Below the pieces are notes generated by a model. The model saw only the letters and a list, made by a program, of their open reading frames with translations, searched no databases and was not told the origin of the DNA. A DNA stretch of 64,000 nucleotides from a virus, in IMG/VR virus record IMGVR_UViG_3300032287_004273, positions 15,359-79,358 of that record; one strand, 5' to 3'. Shown here one piece after another: positions 33,617-55,272 of the stretch (position 1 is its first letter; each line of letters begins with the position of its first letter). The position numbers and the translations under genes were made by a program.

Positions 33617-33854
33617 GGGTAAAAAATCAAATTACAATCGCGGCTTAATGTAATTTATAATGAATTTTTATTCCAATTCCTCATTTGCTCTCTGTAGTTT
33701 GTAATGGAATATAGTAGTTATGGTCATTTATTGTAATTAGCCTAGTATATTACTGACTAGGCTCCAACAGAAGCGGAATGAAATTCAATAATCGAATCAT
33801 TGTCGTATTGTGACAGTCGATTACTAACTAGGTAAAAATTGCCTAGTCGTTATA

Positions 33855-34358: not shown

Positions 34359-34440
34359 AAAAAAATTTACACCAACGTAGCGGCGACGAACTAAAATAGT
34401 TGTAAGTTATTGCAGCAACAAAACTTCCAAAAATTTTATG

Positions 34441-34695
34441 CGATGAGCCAAATAATAACCACTAGGCAAAATTTGCCTAGTAACTCAAAAAAAACTCAAA
34501 AAATTTCATGACCTCGGCCAAATAAAGAGGTAGGCAATTTTTGCCTAGTACGTAAAAAAGCAAAAAATTTCATACAGCTCGCCAAATAAGCGCCCCTCCC
34601 AACTAGGCAAAATTTGCCTAGTAGATAAAAAGCAAAAAATTACCAGCAACCAAGCAAATAAATACCAGGGCAGCTAGGCAATTTTTGCCTACCAT
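34441..34695. repeat. four ~70-bp units each with palindrome TAGGCAA-N3-TTGCCTA (iteron/operator-like)
   Basis: Palindromes at 34463, 34531, 34604, 34675, each preceded by (G)CAAATAA and an A tract; related copies at 33829, 36535 and 47447. Confidence 0.85.
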
Positions 34696-34916
34696 TTAGT
34701 TATCGCCACCAATATGGTTAGTCACACAATTTCTTTTGTTTCTATGCTATTATATAGTAACACAAATCTAAACGTGTTTCGGGCAATCAAAGCAAATCAA
34801 ATCTTATATCAGACAATCAAACAAAAACAAAAACAATTTGGTGATTTAATTTTTTTTGATTTAAATGCGGCCAGGGGCTTGACAACTCCATTTCTTTCTG
34901 ATTTAATCTCTCCCAT

Positions 34917-35216
34917 ATGAATACCCAATCCTATGCTCAAACCGTAAACGAAACTGCAGCAACCAAGCGTGGACGTGGTCGCCCCGCAGGTTCGAACAGT
35001 TTTGCAAACGTACAAATCAAACAGTTGCTTACGCTTCTGTCTGAAGATGCAGTTGTTCCTGTCTCACGTATCTGGTTGCGTGATACATTTGGTGCGATTG
35101 CAGAACCCGCACCTGTCATCATCAACACAGCTAACAATACTGTAGTAGAAAATCAAACAGAAGAAAAAATTCAGTTCCACATCGAAAAATTTGAGGACGC
35201 GAATTGTCCTTTTTAA
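34917..35216 (+). CDS. small AT-hook DNA-binding protein
   Basis: KRGRGRP motif; TTGACA-17-TTTAAT promoter. Confidence 0.6.
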   Translation: MNTQSYAQTVNETAATKRGRGRPAGSNSFANVQIKQLLTLLSEDAVVPVSRIWLRDTFGAIAEPAPVIINTANNTVVENQTEEKIQFHIEKFEDANCPF

Positions 35217-35252
35217 TTGACATTTAAATTCCACCCCTATATATTTGCTCAC

Positions 35253-36176
35253 ATGTTTGACAACCTCATTGGACAATCCGAAATCAAAGATCAACTAGGC
35301 TTCTACTCGAAAGCCTTCCAAAAGACTGGCACTGTACCATTTATACTTCTGAATGGTGCTAAAGGTCTGGGCAAGACTGAGTTCCTCAAGGCGTTCAGCA
35401 AGACCATCACCAATAGTGATGGCAAGCCGCGCCCTATGCTGGAACTCAACTCCAGCACCATCAAGAACAATCAAATGTTCTTTGAGCAGATCTTTATGCC
35501 CATCGTGCAGGGAAACGAAGTAACTCTTTTCTTCGATGAGTGTCATGCACTCCCTAACGATCTGGTGATGGCATTCCTGTCCATCCTCAATACAGAACGT
35601 ACACCTTACAAGGAGTTCAACTGGAGAGAGTATACCTTTACTTTTGATTTCACTAAGATCTCCATGATCTTTGCAACTACCGAGTTAGATAAACTATTTC
35701 CTCCTCTTAAGGATCGGCTGACTGTTCTTGATTTCAAACCATATAATCAAAATGAGTTAGCCGCAATCATCAAGGGTCGCTTGCCAGATGTAGAGTTTGA
35801 AGATGGATTGGTTGAGGAGATTGCCACCACCACCAGAGGTAATGCACGTGATGCTGTAAAGCGTGCAAAGCAAATCGAATTGTACTGCGAGACCAACAAT
35901 TCTAATTTGTTTCTTAAGGATGAGTGGAATGATCTTCGTAAAGTGCTTGGCATCAAACCTTTGGGGTTATCTAATACAGAGGTGCAAGTGCTTGAGATTC
36001 TTAACGCTAGAGGGCCATCCACCTTACAAACTATCGCAGCAGTGACTGGCATGAGTCGTACTGCAATCCAGAAGGATGCTGAACTGTATCTCCTACAGCG
36101 TGGACTCATGAAGATCAATGGTGTTCGCGAGCTTACCAGATTAGGTGCAGACCTAATCAAACAAATGTCAGAGTAG
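35253..36176 (+). CDS. ruvB: RuvB-like Holliday junction branch-migration ATPase
   Basis: FDNLIGQ, GAKGLGKT, FFDECH, ATT, PLKDR, RGNAR, C-terminal winged helix ELYLLQRGLM; leaderless promoter. Confidence 0.85.
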   Translation: MFDNLIGQSEIKDQLGFYSKAFQKTGTVPFILLNGAKGLGKTEFLKAFSKTITNSDGKPRPMLELNSSTIKNNQMFFEQIFMPIVQGNEVTLFFDECHALPNDLVMAFLSILNTERTPYKEFNWREYTFTFDFTKISMIFATTELDKLFPPLKDRLTVLDFKPYNQNELAAIIKGRLPDVEFEDGLVEEIATTTRGNARDAVKRAKQIELYCETNNSNLFLKDEWNDLRKVLGIKPLGLSNTEVQVLEILNARGPSTLQTIAAVTGMSRTAIQKDAELYLLQRGLMKINGVRELTRLGADLIKQMSE

Positions 36177-36223
36177 AGAGTAGTCAAACAGCCCCCCTTC
36201 GAGTGAAGGGGGGTAACTCTTTT

Positions 36224-36487
36224 ATGGCCAAACCTCAATATATCTTTAGACACTTCAGCATAAGGAAGTCAAGAACTATTTTGTTTCATTGCTTGTATAA
36301 TCCGAAGACATTAAGAATCACAGCTATGAGTGCATTCAACTTTGACAGTGGAGTGGGGGAAGAATGCGACTACAGCAAGTTCACCGACGAAGAGTTGAAC
36401 TACACGCTCGCGTGGTTAGAACTCATGCTCGAAACAAAGCTATGGGAAGAGCAAGATGAGTTAGAGAAGGGTAAGGAAGAAGAATAG
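36224..36487 (+). CDS. hypothetical protein
   Basis: Last rightward ORF before convergence. Confidence 0.5.
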   Translation: MAKPQYIFRHFSIRKSRTILFHCLYNPKTLRITAMSAFNFDSGVGEECDYSKFTDEELNYTLAWLELMLETKLWEEQDELEKGKEEE

Positions 36488-36575
36488 TCAAGAGTAAAAA
36501 TTAACAAAAATTATTTCAAATAAGACGAAATAAGTAGGCAAAAACTGCCAGGGGGAGCCCTGGTCACAAAAGACT

Positions 36576-36607
36576 ACACCCCACCCTTTCGGGTGAGGTG
36601 TTTTTTA
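36576..36607. terminator. terminator at the convergence of rightward and leftward units
   Basis: ACACCCCACCC-TTTC-GGGTGAGGTGT plus T run. Confidence 0.7.
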
Positions 36608-36670
36608 TTGGGGGGAAATTTATTTACTTTTTATTTTTGGTTGCGAGTGCGAAGACAACTAGTAGAACAA

Positions 36671-37258
36671 TTAAGATTTGCATTTGCTGGGGGCATATGG
36701 TTCTCCTGTTTCTAGGTTGATGAGGACAACGTCGTCGATGTGACCTCCGTCTTTTACGTTCTTAGCATAGACATCGATCATAAGACTTGGTGTTATATGT
36801 CTTGCGTATACATAGATCTTGCCACTCGCAACGTTTCTGATTGCCCACTTGGCACCTTTTGGTACGCAGAGCCACTTGCTACTGCTATAGCATCTCTCTA
36901 CTGGTATTCCCAGCTTCCTCATCCAAGACTTCCAAGTAGGCCCATGTCCCCAACCCTTGTTGACTTCCCAATCTAAAGCGTGTGCCCATTCGTGTAGAAT
37001 AGTTTCTTTTGCTTTTTGTAAGAAGTTCGGGCTGTTCTTGTTTATGTGTATTATGTGGGTGGAAAGCTCGATTCGTTTTGTCTTTCCATTATTAGATCTC
37101 CAAGCCCTGCCCATTACAGTCCTCAGTCTTTTGTTCCATTTGATTTCCCACCCTTCTAGGATGGGATACTGGAGCTTGATCTGAGCAGAGATTTCTTTGA
37201 ACAATGTATTTACTTCGGCAATCATATTAGTCATCGTCTCTAAATTATTCTTCGTCAA
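36671..37258 (-). CDS. SprT-like zinc metalloprotease
   Basis: WNKRLRTVMGRA, IELS, TILHEWAH, GHGPTWK. Confidence 0.85.
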   Translation of the reverse strand: MTKNNLETMTNMIAEVNTLFKEISAQIKLQYPILEGWEIKWNKRLRTVMGRAWRSNNGKTKRIELSTHIIHINKNSPNFLQKAKETILHEWAHALDWEVNKGWGHGPTWKSWMRKLGIPVERCYSSSKWLCVPKGAKWAIRNVASGKIYVYARHITPSLMIDVYAKNVKDGGHIDDVVLINLETGEPYAPSKCKS

Positions 37259-37451
37259 ATTCTTTTTCTCCTAGTGGTTCAGAGTCAATCGAAAAGAAAA
37301 CTTCGTCTTTGTAAAGATAGTCTCCCTCACCACTAGCAATGTGAATGCCAGTTACATTGTGAAAGTTATCATATACTTCCACGATTACATGGGAGTCAAG
37401 TTGATCGGCAGTCATGCGACCTAAGTCTTTTATTAGTTGTCTGTATGTCAT
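37245..37451 (-). CDS. hypothetical protein
   Basis: MTYRQL start, overlaps the next gene. Confidence 0.6.
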   Translation of the reverse strand: MTYRQLIKDLGRMTADQLDSHVIVEVYDNFHNVTGIHIASGEGDYLYKDEVFFSIDSEPLGEKEFDEE

Positions 37452-37470
37452 ATTTTTTAGCAATTTAAAG

Positions 37471-37547
37471 TGGCGTACCCAGCAGGGTTCGAACCTGCGA
37501 CCAACGGATTAGAAATCCGTTGCTCTATCCAACTGAGCTATGGGTAC
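37471..37547 (-). tRNA. tRNA-Arg(TCT)
   Basis: GTACCCA/TGGGTAC acceptor, TTTCTAA loop, CCA. Confidence 0.92.
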
Positions 37548-37904
37548 TTAAAGACAAGGGTGGAAAGCAAGATCTACATCCTTGCGGTGATATTCTTCAG
37601 ATAGAATGCGCTTTGTCAAGACAATTTCCACCTTGCCAAATGGATAAACATATATCTCACCATAAGTGCCAGCGCCCATATCGAAATCTGGATAATGCTC
37701 CTGTAACAAATGTTCAATTTCATCTTGATAGATTGGAGCAACTTCTTTACTGGAAACGAGTTTGTCCCCAAGCGCAAAGTACACGCAGGAATCAAACCAA
37801 TGAGTACAGGAATCCTCAGAAGTCCAGTGATAGATTGCGTACTTTAGATCACGACTCTTTAGAACCTCAACAAGATCAAGCAATGTCTTTTCCATATGCG
37901 TCAC
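37548..37904 (-). CDS. hypothetical protein
   Basis: First gene of its cassette; TTGCCT/TATGAT promoter. Confidence 0.6.
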   Translation of the reverse strand: MTHMEKTLLDLVEVLKSRDLKYAIYHWTSEDSCTHWFDSCVYFALGDKLVSSKEVAPIYQDEIEHLLQEHYPDFDMGAGTYGEIYVYPFGKVEIVLTKRILSEEYHRKDVDLAFHPCL

Positions 37905-38024
37905 ATCATAAACAATCTTAGCGAGAAGGCAACATTTATTTCAAAAATATTTACGCACTTGTGCGTAATAACACTTGACAGGGAGCCAGGGCTACCCCTG
38001 GGGCGTAACCACCTCATTCTGAGG

Positions 38025-38110
38025 TGGTAGCTAGGGCGGGACTCGAACCCGCACGCCCTACTGGGCAACAGATTTTAAGTCTGTTGTGTCTGCCATTTCA
38101 CCACCTAGCC
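38025..38110 (-). tRNA. tRNA-Leu(TAA)
   Basis: CTTAAAA loop, long variable arm, CCA. Confidence 0.92.
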
Positions 38111-38125
38111 GAAAGAAAAAGAAAG

Positions 38126-38198
38126 TGGGGACGGAGGGATTTGAACCCCCAACCAAGCGATTATGAGTCGCCTGCTCTGACCATTGAGCTACATCCCC
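38126..38198 (-). tRNA. tRNA(CAT), probably Ile2 (lysidine)
   Basis: Anticodon arm GGCGACTCATAATCGCT as in bacterial Ile2 tRNAs; fully paired acceptor. Confidence 0.85.
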
Positions 38199-38204
38199 GA
38201 AAGC

Positions 38205-38591
38205 TTACAATTCAAAAGCGAGAATGTTATCTGATGGAAGAAAGTTCAACTCTGCCTCACCTTCATATAAGGAATATCCTAGCACAGTCAAAGCAAAGAC
38301 GCAAGCATTATCGTAAGAAAAATCTCGAAAGGAATGGATCTCTACACCATCATCTTTGTCCACAATGTAGTAGTCTTTAATCTCATCAGATAAAGATTTA
38401 GGTTCTACACGAAAGCCCAAATGTGTAAGGGCTTGTTCTTCAGGTGTTTGCGGTGATTCTTTATCAATCATTACTTGTTCCTGAAAGGAAGTGTCATCTT
38501 CGATTAGTGTATACGGTTGGTGCATATTTATTTCTTTAACATTAAGCATATTACGACGAGGGTTACGATTAGAGCATCCATAATTAGACAT
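38205..38591 (-). CDS. hypothetical protein
   Basis: Overlaps the upstream stop. Confidence 0.6.
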   Translation of the reverse strand: MSNYGCSNRNPRRNMLNVKEINMHQPYTLIEDDTSFQEQVMIDKESPQTPEEQALTHLGFRVEPKSLSDEIKDYYIVDKDDGVEIHSFRDFSYDNACVFALTVLGYSLYEGEAELNFLPSDNILAFEL

Positions 38592-39279
38592 GAATTACAA
38601 AGCCCGAATTATCTTTTTTTGCTGGCCCCTTGGCACGCAGTCCCACGATTGTATTCTTTGGATCAAGGAAGCGAAGATCGTTTTCATCTCCGTCAATGAC
38701 TTTGAAACCTTCGTGTTCTGTTGGCAAGGGTTGATCTTTTTTAGTGGAGAAAACAAAGGCTGAATTGTTTCCTTTTGCTAAAGCTGCGAAAGCTTTAACT
38801 TGAGACACTTTAGTCTCTGCGCGTGAGAAAGTCAAGTGGTAATTTGAAATTGTCAAGTCCAAACGATCAAACAATTTTGTGTAATCATAGAACTGCACAC
38901 CAGAAAAATGCTGGAAAATGTTTTTGCCCTTGTGGATAATGTCTTCCCATCTGACATCGGAAGTTAAGTTGAGACGAAACACAGCTTGCAAACTTTTCTT
39001 TGCGGCTGATTTGATTCCTGTCTCAATTTCTTTGATTAAATTATCCATGAACAAAGCTTGTTCCTCAAAGAAGCTTTTTGTTTTTTCGATTCGCTGTGGC
39101 TGAACCATGACACCCATGCCAGCCAAGTTAAGGCATGAATCTGTGCAACCTTTAGATCTGCCTTGGCAAACTTCATAACCGCTAATGTTAGCGGGTGCAA
39201 AGTGAATGCCAAAGGTTTCGTATCCGAAGGATCTGCCCTTGAGCGTTTTGTAATTAGCAACGGTGAGTAATTTTTGCAT
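38584..39279 (-). CDS. GP88-like (CxxxxxxCxxxC) phage protein
   Basis: VCQGRSKGCTDSCL, RLNLTSD, FYDYTK, YHLTFS, DGDENDLRFLD. Confidence 0.65.
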   Translation of the reverse strand: MQKLLTVANYKTLKGRSFGYETFGIHFAPANISGYEVCQGRSKGCTDSCLNLAGMGVMVQPQRIEKTKSFFEEQALFMDNLIKEIETGIKSAAKKSLQAVFRLNLTSDVRWEDIIHKGKNIFQHFSGVQFYDYTKLFDRLDLTISNYHLTFSRAETKVSQVKAFAALAKGNNSAFVFSTKKDQPLPTEHEGFKVIDGDENDLRFLDPKNTIVGLRAKGPAKKDNSGFVIHV

Positions 39280-39380
39280 GGGTGAAGAATATCATGAGCA
39301 AGGGGTGGTGCAACAATTATTTCGCAAAATATTTACGCCTTTAGGCGTAATAGTTCTTGACATCCCAGCCAGGGCTACCC

Positions 39381-39577
39381 CTGGCCCCCACCCGATGGGT
39401 GGGGGTCAGCTTCCCGATAGCGTTGGTTGTCAGTTAAACAAACCAAAAAAAGCAAACCAACAATCTATTTGGAAGAGAAAGTAACTGGCCCCCACCCCAC
39501 TGGGTGGGGGTCAGCTTCCCGATAGTTTAGCTCGCTGAGATCCCCTCAGAAAACGCGAGCATCATCTATTTGGAAGA
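39381..39577 (-). ncRNA. two tandem ~100-nt units with constant scaffold and variable insert (candidate sRNAs)
   Basis: Repeats at 39381-39420/39485-39525 and 39463-39476/39564-39577; the scaffold halves base-pair. Confidence 0.45.
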
Positions 39578-40465
39578 ATGGAATTGTCCAAGATTCTGTC
39601 AAGGTAGAACATTCCGAAGTGTGGTTGCTCCACCTTACCGTTCTTTGCTACTATGTAGAGAGTGACAGCTTCAGGTGGGCAATGGTTAGTTCCACCTTTT
39701 GATCCTTTCTTTACGCCAGTACGAACAGTGTAGGTGTTTGTTTCACCTTTCTTGTTATGGTACTTGATCGAAAAGAACTTTCCGTTTGTTGTTGCGATAA
39801 TGCGTTTGCCGATCATATGTGGTGCTGGTTCGAGTGTGTTATTATTCATATAATTATCGTGAAAGATCAACTTGATTGCCATCCTCATCTTCGTCGTCGA
39901 AGTCTTCGTCCTCGTCGTCCCAAACAACATCTGGTTCTGTGGTGTTCATTGCAATGGTAGCGAGCAGATGATCGTAGTCTCCGCTTTGCGCTTCTTTTAG
40001 AACCGCACGAACTTCTTCTTGTGACCAACCTTGGCGAAGCGCGTTGCTTCTCCATGTACCCATAATTGCAAATGCGTTGCCGTCGAGGCCGACCAGTTCC
40101 ATCTTAACTTTCTTGGTTTTTGTGTTTTGCATATCGCTTGTATTGTTTTTTGCTTGGTTGTACGACTCGCAACATTCTGTTGCCCCATCGTAAAGTTTTT
40201 TGATAGGTTACCCCATCGACAATCAGTTTTTGCTTTTTGGAGTCCATACTCTCAACATATCCTCATCCTTCATGATGTCAATCCCAAATCCCAATGTTTG
40301 GAAAGTTTTCTGCAAAGTGTATGCTTGCAACTCAAGAATCTTTTTCATCTCGTTTGATGTCATAGCTTCACCGACAGCTTCCTGCGTAGCCCTGTGGAAT
40401 GCGTAAAGCATTTCACAAAACTGATTTACCAATGGGGTCAACTCTTTGATGGCGTCTTTGTTCAT
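39562..40465 (-). CDS. cassette of three hypothetical genes (40223-40465, 39854-40132 with DGNAFAIMG motif and acidic tail, 39562-39849)
   Basis: TTGCGC-17-TATGAT leaderless promoter at 40499. Confidence 0.65.
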
Positions 40466-40606
40466 GTGGGTATCATATACAGAGCAACCGAATGCGCAAC
40501 ATTTATTTCAAAAATATTTACGTCCTTGGACGTAATAGTTATTGACAGCCCAGCCAGGGGTGGCCCTGGACCCCCGCCTTTCGGCGGGAGACCATTCGTA
40601 TGGAAA

Positions 40607-40912
40607 TTAATGTGCGACTACTTCTGCTTCGTCGATTTCTATGCAGAACTCTCCGCCGCCAAGGGAGAATTCAAACTTATTGCCTGTAAGGGAAACTTCT
40701 TGAGGAAGCCTGCGATCTGTTTTATGGTTAAGCAGAACGCTGTGATCCATCCCATCTTTCCACCTTTCGAGGTGAACATTGGTGGGAACGAAGTGAGTGA
40801 TGTTATGCCAGAGGATCAATCTTTCTTTCTTTTTGATTGCTCTCTTGACTCGCTCAACGTGAGCGTGTTTGACTTTGATCGTGATGTTGGTGTTTCCAAT
40901 GTTTGTTTGCAT
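40607..40912 (-). CDS. hypothetical single-gene cassette
   Basis: TTGCAC/TATGCT promoter then TCTCAC-ATG. Confidence 0.65.
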   Translation of the reverse strand: MQTNIGNTNITIKVKHAHVERVKRAIKKKERLILWHNITHFVPTNVHLERWKDGMDHSVLLNHKTDRRLPQEVSLTGNKFEFSLGGGEFCIEIDEAEVVAH

Positions 40913-41074
40913 GTGAGAAGCATAGCAAAAGCTCTCATGCGTGCAACAATTTTAATTAAAAAAAATTACGCACCTGTGCGCAATAGTTGTTGACAGAAAA
41001 GCCAGGGGTAGCCCTGGCCCCCCGCATAGCGGGGGGTGGGTTGGGAGCGGTGTTACCCGCTCCCCCCGAAGGGC

Positions 41075-41845
41075 TTACGCTTCAGCGCCTGCAAGCTCTT
41101 CAACGTCAATCAGTTGGGGCTCAATGATTGATGCGTGACCCGCAATCGAATCGAAGATTGATTGCATGACCATCGTGCGAGCGGGGAGCTTGGTCAGGTC
41201 GGAGCCTTTCAGGTTCTCCGTCACAGAGTTGTACAGGTTCCACAAGGTGGGCGTGTTGAACTCAGGGTGACGGGGAGCCTTGAACTCTTGCGTGACGGCG
41301 AACACATCGCGAGCGGGAAGCGCCTTAGCTTCAGCGAGTTGAACTGAAAGCTCGCACGCACGATCAAAACCGATTTCGGTGTTCTGATACCGATTGATTC
41401 GGGTTTCCATATCCGTCCAATGCGAGAGAAGGCGACCGATGCCCTCAGACAAAACGCGAGGAATGTCGCGAATGATGTTGACGGTGTGACGGCGAGCCAG
41501 CTTCACATCGCTGGAAAAGCACAGGTTCTCGCATACGATCATGCGGTTGCCAATGCACATACTAGCAGCGAATGACTTGTCGTGCGCGTTACGCAATCCC
41601 AAGACGAGCTTGCGCGAATCGCTATTGATATCGGGGCCAGTGATCTGGAACCCGCCGAAGTACCGTTGACCGAAACGGCCCAGAGCGTGCTTTTCTTCGG
41701 TGACGCTGTAGCCTGCGCGATCCAAAGCGGAAAGCGTTTCTTCCACAAGGAAGGAATGGCTGATTGGGGTGAAGCTGTCCGTGCCATCTGGGGTACGGAC
41801 GGTTGCGAGTTCTTCACGGGAGACGAGGTTCTTTGCAATGATCAT
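41075..41845 (-). CDS. DUF932-family protein
   Basis: PISH, LRNAHDKSFA, RMIVCENLCF, RRHT, TLWNLYNSVTE. Confidence 0.8.
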   Translation of the reverse strand: MIIAKNLVSREELATVRTPDGTDSFTPISHSFLVEETLSALDRAGYSVTEEKHALGRFGQRYFGGFQITGPDINSDSRKLVLGLRNAHDKSFAASMCIGNRMIVCENLCFSSDVKLARRHTVNIIRDIPRVLSEGIGRLLSHWTDMETRINRYQNTEIGFDRACELSVQLAEAKALPARDVFAVTQEFKAPRHPEFNTPTLWNLYNSVTENLKGSDLTKLPARTMVMQSIFDSIAGHASIIEPQLIDVEELAGAEA

Positions 41846-42066
41846 ATGTTTGATTAGGTTTAATGGTTAACTGACAGAAGAGAGTCTCTCACAGCTTGGG
41901 TTTTAGTGCAACGGATTTTTTTGATTTTGAGCATTTATTTTCACCTCAGAAACCATGCCAAGCGCAAATATTTTTGCGCTTGAGCGTAATAGTCTTGACA
42001 GCCCCAGGCCAGGGGTAGCCCTGGACCCCGCCTTTCGGCGGGGTCAAGTGCCTGTGCGTGCCGCAC

Positions 42067-42932
42067 TTACGCCAGATGCGCGATCTTAGCCTCCACAAGG
42101 CGAAGGCGCTCGCGTGCTTCGCGCACATGCGCGAGAGCGAAGTCGGCCACGCCGTTAAGGAGTTCTATGTCGGCCTCTGTGGTGAGACGAGCGACGTTGA
42201 TGTCGCGGACGCACTCGCGTAACACGCGAAGGCTCGCGGTCATGAGTGCTGCGGAGGAGGCGGGTTGTGGTGTGTTTAGTGTCATATTAGGTGTAGCAGA
42301 CAGGGTGGATATCATCCCTTAGTCCATTCCATTTTCTGTTCATCATAATGGAATGGGTGTGCATAACTCTTTTGAGCCTTTGCTTGGATTCTGTCTTGAC
42401 TTTCTTCAACTTGGAAAGTTCCATTTGCAGATAGGTAATCTCATCAATGCTGAGACTTTTTGCGGCTTCAATGATTTGTTTTTTATTCATATTAATTTAA
42501 TGCTTTGATAATGCTTGCGCTGGAGCCCCCTCTGCGAGAAGGAGAAACGCAGAGGGAGCTTGCGCATAGCGCAACAGGGGAAACAACAACCCTGTCCTAC
42601 CGAAAGACTCTTGTCAAATGATTATTGACACCGTTCTTGAAAAACTCATAGTCAACGCAGTCAACCGCATCCAACTTGTACCCACCGATATTCCATTCAA
42701 ACAAAACGTCTGGGCTGGATGGTACGCGCTTCCATGCGTAGATGGTGGCGACTGTATCATTGGGGAATCTTAAGCGCCATTCGATGTTAACTTTTTCGCT
42801 TTCATCGATTGGATTATTATGCTTGTCAGGCGCACCGAATACAGCAACCAATTGGTCGTATGTGCATGAGATGTAACCTTTGAGCGAGGTTCCGTTGATG
42901 AGTGGCGTTCTTCTAACTGCTGTAGTTGTCAT
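42067..42932 (-). CDS. cassette of three genes (42597-42932, 42287-42490, 42067-42285)
   Basis: TTGCAC/TATCTT promoter at 42967; 42597 has GTSLKG, KVNIEW, TIYAWK, WNIGG motifs. Confidence 0.65.
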
Positions 42933-43040
42933 GGATAGAAAGATAGCACAGGAAAGAGTGCGTGCAACTTATTTTTCAAAAATAATTACGCCCTTGGGCG
43001 TAATAGTGCTTGACAGATCCCCAGGGCTACCCCTGGGCGT

Positions 43041-43115
43041 TGGTGGACAGGATGAGACTCGAACTCATAACCAACGCCTTAAAAGGGCGCTGCTCTACCA
43101 TTGAGCTACCTGTCC
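43041..43115 (-). tRNA. tRNA-Lys(TTT)
   Basis: GGACAGG/CCTGTCC acceptor, CTTTTAA loop, CCA. Confidence 0.92.
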
Positions 43116-43183
43116 CTTTGTGCCAGAGCCTCCCCCGCACTCGCGGGGGAGGATGGATGACACAACACACCTAACCACAGAAA

Positions 43184-43972
43184 TTATCTTGCTGCTTCAA
43201 AGCAGTGAGCCGCATGGAGTTCCAGATGTTTGCGGATGTCTTTAATTTTTTGCTTGACCTCATCTCTTTGAGAGACTGCCATGTTCCAACTCTCATCGCC
43301 CTTTGGGTAGTAGTCTCGCTTGTGAAACTCAACCGCAAAAAACTTTTCAGAGAATTGTTCTAGCGCACGAAGCGCATCGAAGTACTGTCCACCTAGTGAT
43401 TTGCCATCGTTGCCATTCATGTGGATGAATGGAAAACAAACAGAAGGATTATCAAGCTGGACTTGTGATTGTGCTGTTTCGGAGATCATTGTTGCAAGTA
43501 TGTTTGGATTTTTTCTTTTAGTTCAATGAGGAAGTTTTCTTCCACGTTCAATTCGTATGAGAGCTTATCTCTTAAGTCTGCATCCGTCAAGCAATGTTTG
43601 CAGATTTCGAGGGCTTTGGTGATGTCTTCTGGTGTGAGCATGATATTAGTCCCAACGTTGTTCAATAAAATCTTTGACCCTCATTTCCTGTAAGACAAGA
43701 AATTTAAATTTTTGTTTTAGTTTTGAAGTGAGTTCAATTAGACCATCAGCATATATCTTCGCATCACACTTGTCAAGTTTAAAACGAAGATCATGACCGT
43801 CTTGACGAGAAAACAAAGAAAACGTATCTCGTATTGTTTCAACATTATCATCGTAATGATAGACTTCTGATCCAAATTCGCTTTGAAGTACGAATGCCCA
43901 AGATTCACAAAGGATGTCTAACAGGTCTGATGGACTGATTGGTTTTGATTCTGCTTTCAATGGGTTGTTCAT
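43184..43972 (-). CDS. cassette of three genes (43646-43972, 43486-43641, 43184-43489)
   Basis: TTGCGC promoter at 44007; middle 51-aa ORF not in track. Confidence 0.6.
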
Positions 43973-44108
43973 GTTTAGAACTCTATCATGGGTTTTGATT
44001 CGCGCAACATTTATTTATCAAAAAATTACGCACTTAGTGCGTAATAGTTCTTGACAGTCGAGCCAGGGGTAGCCCTGGCCCCAACCCTTTCAGGTTGAGG
44101 CGGTTATA

Positions 44109-44532
44109 CTACTCGACCTCCTCTTCTTCCTCTTCTTCCTCTTCGTCGAGCCCACCGAAGAGCGAGTCCCACTCTTCGGCGGTAATGCCCGACTTAATGA
44201 ACTCCCGCTCGTCGGGAGTTAAGTTAGGGAACGCATCTTGCAGCAGAGCGCCTGCTGCATAGAGGTCGAGCTGCGTTTGCGTGATGGGAAGATCAAGCGT
44301 GTTGACTTCCCCCGATACCCACGATGTGCGTGTGATGTTCATGTTTTTATTATTTGTTGCTGATTTGACGGACAGAAGAAACTGGTGGCCATTCGGGCGA
44401 TTCGCCGTTAAGAAGGGCGATTTGATATTCGCGCTCTTCGATCATGCACTCGATTGCGGTTTGCAACTGGCGCAAAGAGTCGAGGTCGCTGAAGTTTTGC
44501 TTAATCAATTCGATCAATGGGTTCGTTCTCAT
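44109..44532 (-). CDS. cassette of two genes (44350-44532; 44109-44342 with QDAFPNL.PDEREFI motif and poly-Glu tail)
   Basis: TTGTGC promoter at 44566. Confidence 0.65.
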
Positions 44533-44673
44533 GGAAGAATCATCTCACAATTCTGCTTTTGCACAACAAAAAAAGAGCAAAAAAATTTACGCTGCAAGCG
44601 TAATAGTTGTTGACAGCCAGCCCAGGGGTAGCCCTGGCCCCCAACCCATTCGGGTTGAGGGCTTTAGCTCTGT

Positions 44674-45155
44674 CTACTTGGCCAAGTCAAAGAATGGGCC
44701 ACTGAACTGGATTTGCCGTTCGTGCGCAAGTGCTTGCGCCCGTTCACGTTCCTCCTGATCAGCCACCTGCTGATTGAGGATATGCGCCTCTTGCAACATT
44801 GCGCTGCACTCATGCGCAAGCATGAAAAGCAATGTGTGTTGCTCGCAAGTGAGCGCGAGTGGGTCGAGCCCCGCAATCATTTTGCGGGACTCGATGAGGA
44901 CTGCGTTTTGCATAAGTTGAAGTGCGTCTTGCATAGGATGTATTATTCGCGTTCTTGGAGTTGTTTGATTCTGCCTGCAATATGTTCTTTGGCCTCTGGC
45001 ACAAAAGTTGCCATACCTATCAAAAAACCTTCGAGGTGGCCAACGATGCACGCATCGACAAGTTTCTCGCCATGCCTTTTCGCGATGTCCGCCTTGGTAG
45101 CGGCCATGAAGGTTTGCATAATCTGAACTGCGTCTGTGTAGTTGTTTCTTTCCAT
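44674..45155 (-). CDS. cassette of two genes (44943-45155, 44674-44934)
   Basis: Starts reassigned to ATGs downstream of the promoter at 45189. Confidence 0.6.
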
Positions 45156-45318
45156 GCCCAAACAATAGCATAAAAAGAAAGGGCTACAATACTCTTTTTT
45201 CATGCCAAGCGTGAAAAAAAGTTCATAAAAATTTTCACTTAATAGCGTAATAGTTCTTGACACCCAGCCCAGGGGTAGCCCTGGCTCCCAACCCTTTCGG
45301 GTTGAGGGGTTTACGGGT

Positions 45319-45576
45319 TTAGTTGTATGCCTTGAGCGGCCCTTGGCCCTCGCACTCAATGCGATGGCGCTCAGTCAAGCGCTCAACCGTTTCAATCGTG
45401 TGCCGCAAAGAGGCTTGGAACTTTGGGTCGCCTTCAAAATCAAACTGCAAGTCGCGCAATGCGTGCTCAAGCATCATGGCCTGAATCGTGGTGCGCGTCG
45501 AGAGCTTGTTGCGTGGGTTCACGCTAGAGTATGCGTGAATTTTGCTGATCAGATCAGAGACTTTGATGTTTTCCAT
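45319..45576 (-). CDS. hypothetical single-gene cassette
   Basis: TTGCGC/TATTGT promoter. Confidence 0.6.
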   Translation of the reverse strand: MENIKVSDLISKIHAYSSVNPRNKLSTRTTIQAMMLEHALRDLQFDFEGDPKFQASLRHTIETVERLTERHRIECEGQGPLKAYN

Positions 45577-45742
45577 GCTCAGACAATAGCAGAAAACAAA
45601 ATGTGCGCAACACTCTTTTTTCATGCCAAACTTCAAAAAAAGTTTACAAAAATTTTCACCCTATTTCATAATAGTTCTTGACGCCCAGTCCAGGGGTAGC
45701 CCTGGACCCCAACCCTTTCGGGTTGAGGTGTTTGCGCTTATG

Positions 45743-45985
45743 CTATTCTTCCATCATGCACTCGATGGCCGCTTTAATCTTTGCTAGTGAATCTGGGTCA
45801 TTATATCCTTGACGGATTTGCTGAATGATTCCTTCGCATGATTGCGTATTCTCGACGAACGTGCATAACTCCTTGAAGTCTGGGTCGCTTGGAAGCGACA
45901 GCGCCCAATTCAGACTCTGCTGAATTGCGCGAAGCGCGTTTAGATCCCTGTCTTCGTAAGTGTCGGTGGTAGGATAGTCGTACAT
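45743..45985 (-). CDS. hypothetical single-gene cassette
   Basis: TTGAAC/TATGAT promoter. Confidence 0.6.
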   Translation of the reverse strand: MYDYPTTDTYEDRDLNALRAIQQSLNWALSLPSDPDFKELCTFVENTQSCEGIIQQIRQGYNDPDSLAKIKAAIECMMEE

Positions 45986-46118
45986 AACTGAGAGAATCAT
46001 ATACAAGAAAGTGTGCGGTTCAACATAAAAATTTTGCTTTTGATGCTTAATAGTTCTTGACAGCGAGTCCAGGGGTAGCCCTGGCGGCTTGTCAAGTATT
46101 TTCTTTTGTTTTTCTCAC

Positions 46119-46146
46119 AAAAAAAGCCGCCCGAAGGCGGCTTTTT
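46119..46146. terminator. bidirectional terminator, same stem-loop repeated at 46639-46668
   Basis: A-tract GCCGCC-CGAA-GGCGGC T-tract (UUCG loop on the - strand). Confidence 0.85.
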
Positions 46147-46161
46147 GTGCTTGACGCGATT

Positions 46162-46479
46162 TTAGAAATCGCCCCCTTCGCACTCGTTCATCGACTCCCA
46201 ATGGGAGTCGAGGAAACTGTCCTCCCCACCGCCGTAGTCCTCATCCGTCCCCCACCCAGCGGACGCGAGCGCATCCGCATCCGCCTCGCCATCCGTCATG
46301 CCGTCCCCTTCGTCTTCGCCCAGATCCTGCGTGCAATCGTCCCCCTCCGCCTCGATCTGCTCCGAAGGATCGTAGTACTCCCCAATCGAGGGGCAGCACC
46401 CGCAGCAAGGCGCGTCCTCGCAGGGGAACTGCGCGTGCGTGTTTTCGTCGTCTGAACCTGAATTAGATGATGTAACCAT
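46162..46479 (-). CDS. extremely acidic Cys-cluster protein
   Basis: CEDAPCCGCC and DADALASAGWGTDEDYG motifs; no Lys/Arg. Confidence 0.7.
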   Translation of the reverse strand: MVTSSNSGSDDENTHAQFPCEDAPCCGCCPSIGEYYDPSEQIEAEGDDCTQDLGEDEGDGMTDGEADADALASAGWGTDEDYGGGEDSFLDSHWESMNECEGGDF

Positions 46480-46683
46480 GCGCCAAACATAACACATAAA
46501 AGCAAAAGGTCAAAAACTATTTGCGTGCCAAGCCTGAATTTAAATTCATAAAAATTTCTCACAAATAGCATAATAGTTGTTGACGCCCGACCCAGGGGTA
46601 GCCCTGGATCTTGTCAAGAGTTTTTTTTATTTTAGTGCAAAAAAAAAGCCGCCCGAAGGCGGCTTTTATGGCGGCTTTTATGC

Positions 46684-46938
46684 TTAGAGCGCCATTTGCC
46701 TTTCGTGCGCGAACGCTTGCGCCCATTCGCGAGCGTCCTCCTCCGCTTCCCCGAATTCGACGGAGGCGACATCCGCCTCCTGCGCGAAACGCGCCTCCTG
46801 CGCGTTCGCGCAGGCAAAGGACGCGATTTGATGGAGGAGCGCGATGTGCTCCTCCGTCAGGGATGCGCAATTGAGGTCGCGCACGCAGGCGCGAACGTGA
46901 ATGAGAACCGCTGTGAGATTGGACGATGTATTAACCAT
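46684..46938 (-). CDS. hypothetical single-gene cassette, paralog of 42067 and 44674
   Basis: VRACVRDLNCASLT, AQAFAHERQ. Confidence 0.65.
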   Translation of the reverse strand: MVNTSSNLTAVLIHVRACVRDLNCASLTEEHIALLHQIASFACANAQEARFAQEADVASVEFGEAEEDAREWAQAFAHERQMAL

Positions 46939-47069
46939 GCGGATACAGTACAAAAAGAATGCTGCGATTGGAAGGATTATTTGCAAAAAATTTCTCACTC
47001 TATGCACAATAGTTGTTGACAGGGTGGCCAGGGGTAGCCCTGGGGGCTGTCAAGCTTTTTTTGCTTTTT

Positions 47070-47279
47070 TTATGCTTGCACAACTTGCATGTTCTGTGGG
47101 CGCATTGAGTACTCCTTAGAGTACTCCTCATTCGTGAGTATCAGCGCGAAGCTGATATCGAAGCGACCACTTGCAAACAACTCAGCGCGAACGCTTTTTG
47201 CTTCGTCGCGAGTCTCGCAACGGATAGTTTCATGCCCGAAGTTTCCCGCCTTGTTTAAGCTAACGTATAATGTGAACAT
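47070..47279 (-). CDS. hypothetical single-gene cassette
   Basis: TTGCAA-17-TATAAT then ATG. Confidence 0.65.
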   Translation of the reverse strand: MFTLYVSLNKAGNFGHETIRCETRDEAKSVRAELFASGRFDISFALILTNEEYSKEYSMRPQNMQVVQA

Positions 47280-47546
47280 GCGATGATTATAGGGTAACAA
47301 ATGTGCGATTGCAAAAACTATTTTCGTGCCAAGTGTATTTTTAATTCTTAAAAAATTTCCTACAAATAGCTCAATAGTGCTTGACAGGGTGGCCAGGGGT
47401 CCCCCTGGAGTTTTTTGCCTAGTGAGTTTTTGCCGCCTCCTAGAGGTAGGCACTTCTTGCCTAGCGCCAGGGATCATGCACTTTCTGCATCATGCACTGG
47501 TCGCATGGCCATGCATGGGCCGCATCCCATGCATGGCGTGCATGGC

Positions 47547-47654
47547 CTACTTCTTGCTCGTGAAGTATTCTGCGCATTCTGCAACCAGCGCAACGATGGT
47601 TATGAATGTCATGGGGAATAGGACTAATGCAGATGCTGCAATGATGTCTTTCAT
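47547..47654 (-). CDS. 35-aa hydrophobic peptide
   Basis: MKDIIAASALVLFPMTFITIVALVAECAEYFTSKK, preceded by (AC)13. Confidence 0.4.
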   Translation of the reverse strand: MKDIIAASALVLFPMTFITIVALVAECAEYFTSKK

Positions 47655-47657
47655 GGG

Positions 47658-47683
47658 GTGTGTGTGTGTGTGTGTGTGTGTGT
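47658..47683. repeat. (GT)13 microsatellite
   Basis: Perfect dinucleotide run. Confidence 0.95.
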
Positions 47684-47719
47684 AGGTTGGGGGGCTCGCG
47701 CCCCCCTTGTGATTCTTGC

Positions 47720-48623
47720 TTAGGCGTTTGCGTATTCTCTAACTAACTTAAGACCATTCACTTCCAACGTGCGGATTTTGGCCGCACTAGTGAAGCTGCG
47801 CGTGCCCTTGGCCGTTGAGAGGATGTATTGCGTACCAGCACCGCACGCCTTGGACTCAACTAAGGTGCCTTCGAGCGTCTTGAATTGTCCGTTATCGTTT
47901 ACGCGATCGTTTGACGATGCGTGGTAGGTGACTTTGATGTTCGATCCGTTTGCGATTGTCAGGTTTGCCATATGTGAGAAGTATAGGGAATTGAGGTTGA
48001 GAAACAAGATTTATTTGTGTTTTTTTAGTCTTTTTTCAAGGAGTTGATCGTGTTTTCGACGTATCGCTTGACATCATTATCCCAATTGATCATCAACCCT
48101 AGCACTGAAGTTAAAAAGGCTTCGGTTGAGACTTGGATCAATGCTTCGTCGCCATTCACGCGCTTGCACACGCTTTGTTTGTATGTTGCGACAAGGGTTT
48201 CGGCGATTTGCTGTGAGGCTTCGTAAGTTGTAATCATGTGAGAAGTATAGGGAGTTGAGAGAGGGAAACAAGGTTTATTTGTGTTTTTATTTCACTTTTT
48301 TCTGCAAGCGCAAAGCACTAGGAGAGAGAGAGTTAGGATGCTCATCTGCAAGTAGGTGAATGAGAGAAGGTTAAAGAGGAGGGATCGAACCTCCTCAGGT
48401 TGAGCGCTTAGTGAATGTAATCATGAGCGGCTTCGCCGCATTCGTCTGAGGGAATACTTTCAAGCTCCTCAGGTGTGAGCGCAACGTATTCATCACCAAC
48501 CTTTTTCAAGGCTTTAATGATGAAAGCATCACAAAAGTCTGGGTAGTCACACATATCAATTCCATCCATCTCAATGTCGAAGCATTCGACTGCTTCGCCG
48601 TTAACCGTTAATTTCATATCCAT
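47720..48623 (-). CDS. three single-gene units (48408-48623 acidic DYPDFCDAF type, 48025-48237, 47720-47971)
   Basis: Each has its own promoter; those at 47973-48025 and 48238-48290 are near-identical (TTGTTT-17-TATACT-TCTCAC). Confidence 0.7.
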
Positions 48624-48924
48624 GTGAGAAGACTAAGCGAAGCGCTTTCGAATCGCAACATCTATTTCATTTTTTTTTATGGGGCTCCCACCCTTGCAAC
48701 TTGCATTTTGTGCATGCCGCGCATGCCCCCCCATTATTTGAAAAATGCACTGCGTGCATCCCGCGCCAGGCCAGGGGGGGCCATATTTTCAGTCCACCAC
48801 TCCAAAAACAACCATTCCAAACTATACCCCTCCCCCTTTTTTTAAAATCATTATAATCTCTCCCTATACAATCAATAACTAAACTCAAAAAAAATCGGAC
48901 GCCTCTATTCGTGTAACCTTTTAT

Positions 48925-54362: not shown

Positions 54363-55272
54363 CTGTTTAGAGTGTGAACAAGAATTTGATTCCGAAAGAT
54401 CTCTCCATGCGCACATAAAAAAGCATGGAATTTATCTTCATGATTATTTCGTAAAACATTTTTCACGTAGAAATCTATTAACCAATGAATTACTTCCGTT
54501 TAAAAATAAAGAATCTTATTTTGAGTATGATTTTAATAGTGTGTCTGAGGTTTACGCTTGGTGTGAGACTGCTAATCAAAAAACTGTCAGAAATTATATA
54601 TTAAGCAAGCTCGAAAGTAGAATTAAAAGTCGAAATTTAACTTTTGCACCAAATGAAATTGAACTTTATACAAGCATGCTTCCAAGCATATCTATATATA
54701 AAAAATTTTTTAAAAGTTATACGTTTGCATGCGAAGAAATTGGGGCAAGGCCAATGTTTAATGCAAAAATTCCAGATGGATTCTGGAATAATGACTCAAT
54801 TAAAGATTTAATAATTTTAACTGACACTAGGGAGCAGGAACCTTTATTTTTTGAAAAACAATTAGTTAGAAAACTTGATGTTGGCGACTATGCGATCCAA
54901 GATCATTTTGATTATACATTTGTTGACAGAAAATCCGAAGGGGACTTCAAGTCAACATTAAGTAAAGACAATTTTTTAAGATTTAAAAGAGAACTAGATA
55001 GATGTAGAGCAATGGATTGCTATTTATTTGTTGTCATAGAGTCCGATTTAAAAAAATTAGACGACTCGAATAAAAAATCAGCTCACAAAGCAAATATGAA
55101 ATATATTTATCATAACATGCGAGTATTGCAGCACGAATATAGAGATTGTTGCCAATTTGTTTTCTCTGGAAATAGAAAAAATAGCGAATATTTAGTTCCA
55201 AGAATTTTATTTCATGGAAAAAAGATTTGGAATGTTGATTTACAATATTTCATTAACGAAAAAAAATTATGA
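54352..55272 (+). CDS. C2H2 zinc finger plus ERCC4-type nuclease
   Basis: CLEC...H...H; DTREQ, GDY, DRKS..D, VVIE. Confidence 0.8.
   Translation: MSFNCLECEQEFDSERSLHAHIKKHGIYLHDYFVKHFSRRNLLTNELLPFKNKESYFEYDFNSVSEVYAWCETANQKTVRNYILSKLESRIKSRNLTFAPNEIELYTSMLPSISIYKKFFKSYTFACEEIGARPMFNAKIPDGFWNNDSIKDLIILTDTREQEPLFFEKQLVRKLDVGDYAIQDHFDYTFVDRKSEGDFKSTLSKDNFLRFKRELDRCRAMDCYLFVVIESDLKKLDDSNKKSAHKANMKYIYHNMRVLQHEYRDCCQFVFSGNRKNSEYLVPRILFHGKKIWNVDLQYFINEKKL

Follow-up and report, generated by a model that had tools for sequence, protein, structure and literature searches.

The virus record IMGVR_UViG_3300032287_004273 (79,358 bp, also named G000, with an estimated completeness of ~55% according to CheckV) is from an uncultured freshwater phage. 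Its bases 15359-79358, i.e., 64,000 nucleotides, constitute the window analyzed here, and all coordinates are window positions. The genes are directed rightward up to 36.5 kb, leftward in the region that follows and rightward again from 48.9 kb. Most of the window has a GC content of ~30-34% (~32%), compared with 42-51% at 36-48 kb, where the leftward genes form an array of 14 small cassettes; the higher value may stem from cassettes of foreign origin or from structured RNA. A 16-bp palindrome, CCAGGG-N4-CCCTGG (referred to as PAL), recurs throughout this array, which is bracketed by two 29-bp inverted repeats. These terminal repeats, the subject of this work, are real, recurrent and located at the limits of the array. 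Each is a composite of PAL and a member of a second dyad family, TAGGCA-N5-TGCCTA, which is always found on the outer side of the end PAL and overlaps it by 3-4 bp. The features of the array are as follows.

36671-47279, minus strand: leftward array of 14 cassettes with small open reading frames (ORFs; SprT-like, GP88 and DUF932, the rest ORFans) and four tRNA genes
36535-36563, plus strand: left composite end, formed by a TAGGCA-type dyad (36535-36551, matching its consensus at 14/17) and the first PAL (36548-36563, core GGAG), which share 4 bp
37986-47043, no strand assigned: 13 internal PAL copies, starting at 37986, 39369, 40554, 41002, 42009, 43021, 44063, 44622, 45269, 45690, 46069, 46592 and 47028
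47393-47421, plus strand: right composite end, composed of the last PAL (47393-47408, core GTCC) and AGTTTTTTGCCTA, a degenerate TAGGCA-type dyad (47405-47421)
36576-36610, no strand assigned: hairpin H1, GC-rich, with a T-run and a terminator-like call on either strand (-32.8 kcal/mol for the RNA fold, z -3.1)
47286-47314, minus strand: promoter of the first (rightmost) cassette, with TTGCAA, 17 nt, TATAAT and 6 nt to the ATG at 47279

The initial annotation described 36535-36563 as matching the reverse complement of 47393-47421 at 25 of 29 positions without gaps, and both the coordinates and the match are correct. With one gap on each side the arms align at 27/30, and a repeat search lengthens the pair to 40-nt arms (80%). 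The whole record harbors 15 PAL copies, all within 36548-47408. The GGA(G/C) cores are, as had been claimed, confined to the first (GGAG) and last (GTCC, i.e., GGAC on the other strand) of these, while the internal centers are GTAG, CTAC or GTGG. The TAGGCA half-site likewise abuts only the two outermost copies; away from a cluster of such dyads at 34.5 kb, the exact sequence TAGGCAAAAA is found solely at 36535 and 47412. The dyad at 36535 has three mismatches. The right end is otherwise a normal type-B unit, in which the distance from the PAL center to the ATG at 47279 is 121.5 nt. At the left end, CAGTTTTTGC comes after PAL on the minus strand and the scan returns a terminator-like call; the right composite gives such a call on the plus strand.

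Because both motifs are palindromic and their order is mirrored, the terminal arms read as an inverted repeat, which is automatic for any juxtaposition of an outside and an inside motif. The palindrome common to both arms accounts for 16 of the 29 nt, and the information therefore sits in the 13-nt outer flanks and the core. What is non-trivial is that PAL and TAGGCA are juxtaposed at the two ends only, with near-equal overlap and mirrored cores. When the 13-nt PAL flanks were compared in inverted orientation (210 comparisons), the terminal pair scored 10/13, where the mode was 2-3; one other pair reached the same score, which is explained by an extended hairpin that includes TTGACA.

Repeated units of the array

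Read on the plus strand, a unit consists of an A/T tract, a covarying hairpin called H3, AATAGTTSTTGACA, six nucleotides, PAL and hairpin H1. On the minus strand, the stop codon is followed by H1, PAL, a 6-nt spacer, the motif TGTCAAGAACTATT, and H3 then AAATTTTT; the second half of the unit is composed of an A/T-rich tract, a -35 element (TTGCNC or similar), 16-17 nt, a -10 element (TATnnT), 6-9 nt and the ATG. Sigma-70-like elements at this distance precede the first ORF in 12 of the 14 cassettes, or in 13 if a start at 45985, 10 nt from its -10 element, is counted; the promoter geometry was not seen for the DUF932 cassette (start 41845). This spacing between the -10 element and the ATG implies leaderless or near-leaderless mRNAs. 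Upstream of 33 plus-strand genes that were checked, Shine-Dalgarno motifs are essentially absent, and the phage appears, from the arrangement of its gene starts, to rely largely on leaderless translation or translation without a Shine-Dalgarno sequence. The same leaderless-type layout is found in several plus-strand genes (e.g., 10181, 14306, 15334 and 17895) and across the minus-strand genes at 36671-48623.

Both hairpins occur with many stem sequences in which pairing is kept, and H1 is GNRA-capped, with a GAAA loop in 15 of 33 distinct versions. The summed stem lengths are 389 nt on the minus and 296 nt on the plus strand for H1, and 268 and 225 nt, respectively, for H3. The corresponding numbers of G.U pairs are 48 and 43 for H1, which is a slight difference, and 17 and 3 for H3, which is a clear one. 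Because pairing is better on the minus strand, H1 and H3 are best read as RNA structures of the sense transcript. H3 together with its U-run is best read as the cassette terminator, and the H1 copy at 36576-36610 is a predicted bidirectional terminator, placed convergently between a plus-strand operon with a RuvB-like gene and the leftward array.

The behavior of PAL is different. In 63 copies from six phages, obtained in a survey that admitted at most one mismatch per copy, its arms have 2 mismatches in 756 positions, while the 4-nt center has 13 forms and can flip. The centers of the 6-bp arms are 10 bp apart, i.e., the half-sites are separated by one helical turn around a free center, as in a dyad operator. 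Considering the invariant PAL arms against the covarying H1 and H3, sequence-specific recognition of a dyad is thus a better fit to the data than a plain RNA hairpin. Eight units have a distance of 96.5-98.5 nt from the PAL center to the ATG, and for four others it amounts to 120.5-121.5 nt.

The four units with the larger distance carry an extra insert of ~24 nt (45194-45226, 45615-45647, 46517-46549 and 47318-47350) that shifts PAL from ~97 to ~121 nt from the ATG. The insert holds an inverted repeat, TTTTTTCA-N9-TGAAAAAA, around GCCAAG/CTTGGC. At 37986, 39369 and 43021 the PAL center is flipped (CTAC on the plus strand), and at these positions PAL comes after a tRNA gene or a structured non-coding stretch, not after H1.

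Other types of promoter were considered and rejected. An N4-type hairpin promoter or a promoter of a phage RNA polymerase, suggested by the combination of a covarying hairpin and ACTATTA, was set aside: there is no ORF for a giant or T7-like RNA polymerase in the window, and ordinary -35/-10 elements lie downstream. A rightward sigma-70 promoter at the conserved TTGACA lacks a -10 element at 16-18 nt, and Bacteroidota-type or sigma-54-type promoters do not fit the spacing upon inspection of the sequence.

Recurrence and variation in relatives

The window harbors genes for a large terminase (55269-57128), a tail protein, ThyX, glycosyltransferases and other auxiliary proteins, as well as seven tRNA genes. 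The large terminase is 25-28% identical to those of isolated phages, the nearest being Bacillus siphoviruses and Microcystis phage MaeS, and 68-96% identical to the proteins of the 80 IMG/VR loci that were listed from among 580 confirmed matches. Near-identity searches in phage and plasmid collections returned tRNA matches only, as did a search against Rfam. Complete relatives have genomes of 134-140 kb (G007, 140 kb, and G008, 134 kb with direct terminal repeats). The relatives further include G001 (a record of 85.7 kb), G003, and the partial contigs G002 (a 27-kb fragment), G004 and G009. Within the close clade the DNA identity is only 83-90%.

G001 harbors 10 PAL copies and G002 five, up to its right end, and the end copies of both phages combine the GGAG core with TAGGCA on the outside. 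A search with the composite-end pattern, which fixed most positions, identified 13 metagenome contigs from several samples with eight left and five right ends. The left-end arm in G001 and eight metagenome contigs is identical to that of the window or has one difference (position 11, C/G). Most right ends of the relatives and metagenome contigs have a near-perfect TAGGCAAAAATTGCC(CA) dyad with a 3-nt overlap with PAL, and the right end of the window is therefore a degenerate version. In all 18 ends (G000, G001, G002 and the 13 metagenome contigs) the inner and outer flanks are cognate. What is informative in the metagenome set is that the composites recur in surroundings that have diverged and that no recombinant junction is seen.

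The array is collinear between G000 and G001/G002, and the differences are whole cassettes with breakpoints in the repeated units. In the comparison of G000 with G001, 45315-45564, between 174-bp direct repeats, is lost, an extra cassette is found at 47044-47350 between duplicated units, and breaks at 46085 and 41036 are located just past PAL or H1. The ORF of the rightmost cassette (47070-47279) is 86% identical at the DNA level to a G001 gene (L083 15025-15207) that resides outside the array, to the right of the gene for an 83-aa early protein (p83). Thus, a gene has crossed the array boundary between close relatives.

The more distant G003, G004 and G009 have kept the array and PAL, while the TAGGCA dyads are absent. 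In G003 the left end is without the flank repeat, and a GGAG core occurs internally. Right ends located through the p83 gene, i.e., independently of any motif, showed that in G003 and G004 the place of the two TAGGCA dyads is taken by other two-copy motifs (CACGTACTT twice and GTGTACGTACA twice, respectively). The right-end motif of G003 was sought at the G003 left end and in its A/T-rich cluster and was not found in either. Upstream of the RuvB-like operon, G009 has PAL at the position of a TAGGCA dyad in the window, so the two dyad families are positionally interchangeable. The complete relative G008 harbors an equivalent leftward array in the same place with quite different repeats. That array (L089 6100-15840) is without PAL and has ten copies of a ~130-nt element, which form inverted repeats with each other with arms of ~90 nt.

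Flanking dyads and genes

Further members of the TAGGCA family and a number of genes are found on the two sides of the array.

47447-47463, no strand assigned: second TAGGCA-N5-TGCCTA dyad, with perfect arms, just beyond the right end
34463-34691, no strand assigned: four perfect TAGGCA-N5-TGCCTA dyads (34463, 34531, 34604 and 34675), spaced by 68-73 bp, upstream of the plus-strand operon with AT-hook and RuvB-like genes
33829-33845, no strand assigned: TAGGCA-type dyad with one mismatch, just 3' of the stop codon of a leftward 167-aa gene; kept in G001
34917-35216, plus strand: 99-aa protein (p99) with the AT-hook RGRGRP, a candidate DNA binder, 57-59% conserved in G003 and G009
35217-36176, plus strand: RuvB-like AAA+ ATPase with a C-terminal winged helix (Pfam RuvB_N, AAA and RuvB_C)
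47720-47971, minus strand: p83, directly upstream of the right end

The dyad at 47447-47463 is kept in G001, G002 and four of the five metagenome right ends, and L097 has a shortened variant. All four dyads at 34.5 kb are found in G001; they are absent from G003 and G009, which have PAL or unrelated sequence in their place. Each TAGGCA dyad is preceded by an A/T-rich repeat, AAAAAATTTCAT-N7-GCCAAATAA (34416-34661 in the window, L085 100-650 and L089 30-1330), which resembles the part of the array units from the A-tract to AATAG and may be a promoter, an origin repeat or a bending element. This repeat is also kept in relatives without TAGGCA; in G008 there are 11 copies of AAATTACGAACGA-N8-GCNAAATAAAC.

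The RuvB-like gene is the penultimate one of the plus-strand operon (34714-36487), the stop codon of which, at 36487, is located 48 nt before the left composite. Its product is a full-length RuvB homologue (PDB entry 3pfi, E 6.6e-17, residues 13-299); an identification of this AAA+ protein as an Orc/DnaA-like initiator was replaced by that of the RuvB homologue after the PDB search. On the other side of the array, p83 tracks PAL, i.e., it is present in G001-G004 and absent from G006-G008, which have no PAL, a co-occurrence that is confounded by relatedness. An AlphaFold2 (AF2) model of p83 is all-beta (pLDDT 76) and gave weak bL19-like matches only.

Leftward genes outside the array (starts 47971 and 48237) are preceded by another repeated promoter unit, at 47972-48024 and 48236-48288, which has no PAL. 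It consists of AAACACAAATAAA, TTGTTT, 16 nt, TATACT, TCTCAC and the ATG at 48237, and of TCTCACAT at 47971. The boundary of the array is thus also a change of promoter-unit family. Non-coding clusters of a short CATGCA-type palindrome (CCATGCATGG and variants) are found at 47480-47550, just to the right of the right end, and at 48690-48770, near a divergent promoter region, and may constitute a third family of binding sites. A (GT/CA)n run of ~13 units (~47658-47686), possibly prone to slippage, is located directly upstream of a small leftward ORF (ATG near 47653).

Function of the terminal repeats

In the initial annotation the inverted repeats were proposed to be the ends of an invertible or transposable segment, on which a recombinase or transposase would act. 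The part of that annotation that stands is the special status of the two end copies, which delimit the PAL-bearing array, and a 29-bp terminal inverted repeat does bracket a block of distinct base composition. However, the orientation and locus are the same in five relatives (G001, G002, G003, G004 and G009), none of the 18 ends has a recombinant combination of flanks, and neither an inversion junction nor a second orientation is seen in these assembled contigs. Neither variable locations nor empty sites were observed: the array resides between the RuvB-like operon and the p83/terminase side where both flanks are visible (G001 and G003), and the partial contigs G002, G004 and G009 show it on the flank that this arrangement predicts. 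The outer flanks, GAAATAAG on the left and GTGAGTTT on the right, contain no direct repeat, i.e., there is no target-site duplication. A search for Phage_integrase, Resolvase, rve, DDE_Tnp_1 and Y1_Tnp, other transposase families not being searched, gave no match in the ~55% complete G000, in G001 and G003, or in the complete G007 and G008; the tyrosine or serine recombinase that this proposal calls for was thus not found in the record or in the complete relatives. Furthermore, the flank repeat is missing in more distant relatives that still hold the array, G008 has other repeats at the same place, and a comparison of G000 with G001 shows that a cassette has moved across the boundary. Because there is no flanking direct repeat and no recombinase match, and because orientation and locus are constant, mobility or inversion is not supported, and we consider it highly improbable. 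An integron was rejected since no IntI-type tyrosine recombinase was found and most cassettes have their own -35/-10 elements and terminator hairpins. Rather unlikely, in our view, is a model in which the end copies are outward-facing intrinsic terminators, where PAL forms the hairpin, a T-run follows and TAGGCAAAAA is merely the complement of the U-tract. The left end would then stop transcripts of the leftward array, and the right end those that run rightward, either antisense or by read-through. In a consensus scan both ends are indeed terminator-like and directed outward, PAL is predicted to form a GC-rich hairpin of 6 bp at either end, longer hairpins that include PAL and precede plus-strand T-runs are found in the units at 46069, 46592 and 47028, and in 10/10 left-end variants T5 is found three nucleotides past the stem. 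If an intrinsic terminator is defined as a GC-rich stem-loop with a U-rich tract within 0-2 nt, both ends of G000 conform according to the consensus scan, whereas T5 begins three nucleotides past the stem at the left ends and the T-run begins 5-6 nt past it in most right-end variants (GCAATTTTTGCC, GCAAATTTTGCC). What is conserved at the right end is the GCCTA half-site and the near-perfect dyad rather than the distance from hairpin to U-tract, and the fold at this end is no more stable than those of shuffled sequences (z +0.4). In addition, the left terminal PAL of G003 has no T-run, and the strong bidirectional H1 is already present at the left end.

The composites could also be a neutral by-product without a function of their own. 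According to this model, terminal units escape the homogenization that acts on internal units, and gene conversion, or illegitimate recombination on GCC/CC microhomology, placed the TAGGCA flank at each end. The 13 types of 4-nt core found elsewhere look neutral, the junction nucleotides vary and match different copies of the 34.5-kb cluster (e.g., AAATTTT and AATTTTT centers), and the composite is limited to one shallow clade. Yet the mirrored arrangement is kept at both ends despite diverged adjacent flanks, and other lineages hold a two-copy motif of different sequence in the same place, which makes a neutral origin unlikely. We consider it very unlikely that the TAGGCA dyads are sites for a replication initiator or are otherwise associated with an origin, with the copies at the array ends acting as accessory sites for loading, pausing or recombination. 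Four perfect, phased dyads (68-73 bp) with A-tracts, located in an extended non-coding gap next to the AT-hook and RuvB-like genes, would be consistent with such a role, but the AAA+ protein is a homologue of RuvB over its full length, not a recognized initiator, and relatives retain the A/T-rich repeat scaffold of the gap without the TAGGCA dyads.

The explanation that we favor, and for which we regard the balance of probabilities as about even, is that the composites are protein-binding boundary sites of an early-gene block, the left one possibly being a terminator as well. The fallback idea of the initial annotation, anchors that insulate the cassette domain, is compatible with these data and may be regarded as close to this explanation. 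The array is a leftward early-gene block between two rightward blocks, a row of cassettes composed, as a rule, of a promoter, small ORF(s) or tRNAs and a 3' region. PAL flanks every cassette like a fence post, the 29-bp repeats being the two outermost posts. We infer that a factor common to the wider clade binds PAL and that a clade-specific regulator binds TAGGCA. Because the sites overlap in the composites, the two proteins would compete or cooperate exactly at the limits of the array, and the ends would therefore work as regulatory boundaries toward the neighbors, which are the RuvB-like operon on the left and immediate-early genes and the late block on the right. The left PAL with CAGTTTTTGC and the right PAL with AGTTTTTTGC are both terminator-like and both directed outward, which is counted in favor of this explanation. 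The left copy, with T5 on the sense strand of the array, is probably also the last terminator, and termination is likely to be an extra role at the left end only. The lineage-specific two-copy motifs at the right ends of G003 and G004 would look like an operator pair that co-evolves with its regulator.

A number of observations weigh against boundary sites. Searches for a binding protein using Pfam and PHROGs on 40 ORFs, a PDB sequence search, a protein atlas, and AF2 with Foldseek for p83 gave no DNA-binding assignment: the small ORFs of the array and its flanks have no significant DNA-binding Pfam hit, and the fold search with p83 returned nothing significant. The binders p83, the AT-hook protein p99 and the winged helix of the RuvB-like protein are candidates only. 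At 83-90% DNA identity, retention of the sites could reflect descent rather than selection, and PAL could act in RNA. The invariance of the metagenome composites is in part ascertainment because of the search pattern, and it follows from G003, with no flank repeat at its left end and a GGAG core inside the array, that neither feature is essential to the array.

The proposal of boundary sites may be extended to a protein-delimited domain. Here, a PAL-binding protein would occupy or bridge all 15 sites, resulting in array-wide silencing or insulation in a manner similar to ParB/KorB or stoperators. A second, fast-evolving regulator on the overlapping TAGGCA sites would cap both ends and link them to the phased cluster by the RuvB-like operon, i.e., a two-factor boundary system in a virulent phage. 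We consider this more specific version distinctly unlikely.

In T4-type phages, early genes are found in promoter-early stem-loop (PeSL) cassettes, and the PeSL units, which end in a Shine-Dalgarno sequence, have been proposed to keep early transcription from spilling into late genes (Arbiol et al. 2010, PMC2839356; Comeau et al. 2014, PMC4122927). As in the PeSLs described there, repeated composites of a terminator and a strong sigma-70-like early promoter flank small ORFans in a plastic region. The PeSL-type composition, i.e., H3 with a T-run, an A/T tract, TTGCNC-16-TATnnT and ATG, is predicted in 12 of the 14 units (13 with the 45985 start), and the indels between the close relatives G000 and G001 break in the repeats, as is the case for PeSLs. 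In contrast to PeSLs as these papers describe them, the units here are from a phage group that is not T4-type, precede genes that look leaderless and contain, in addition, a 16-bp dyad that is invariant, and a second dyad family caps both ends of the array; the passages on PeSLs in PMC2839356 and PMC4122927 contain nothing similar to the terminal composites. Because of the non-T4 terminase and the absence of Shine-Dalgarno sequences, the array is an analogue of the PeSL system rather than a member of it.

Stoperators of the Cluster A mycobacteriophages (L5 and relatives) are many copies of a short repressor site located in short intergenic spaces and acting beyond promoters; they are asymmetric 13-mers, bound by a monomer, with one working orientation (PMC9283540). 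The array shares with them the many copies of one short putative binding site in short intergenic spaces. Unlike stoperators, PAL is a symmetric dyad with a center that flips, and neither an immunity repressor nor an integrase is present here. The TGTCAAG stretch of the unit presumably resembles the L5 site. In the IncP plasmid RK2, two repressors, KorA and the ParB-family protein KorB, act jointly on two palindromic operator families that are distributed over one replicon and sometimes lie side by side. Two dyad families are found here as well, which is an analogy only, as no ParB-like or KorA-like gene was identified in the phage. Integron arrays (attI/attC) are similar in that small single-gene cassettes are split by palindromic elements and the end site is distinct, but attC sites are long and imperfect, unlike PAL, which is short and perfect and does not vary in its arms. 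Transposon or insertion-sequence ends and the hix/gix-type sites of invertases also bracket a DNA segment with short inverted repeats; unlike these, the array has a fixed locus, one orientation in every sequence seen, no target-site duplication and no match to a transposase or invertase.

What is described here is an architecture at the level of sequence in metagenomic phages, and the terminal repeats are a detail of it, not a new mobile element. The PeSL idea, i.e., that repeated promoter-terminator units drive cassette shuffling, is extended to a non-T4 lineage with apparently leaderless genes. If the composites are boundary operators, the array would be a compact natural example of a plastic block of early cassettes that is partitioned by means of two dyad families, and the motif swaps at one position would show co-evolution of a regulator and its sites.

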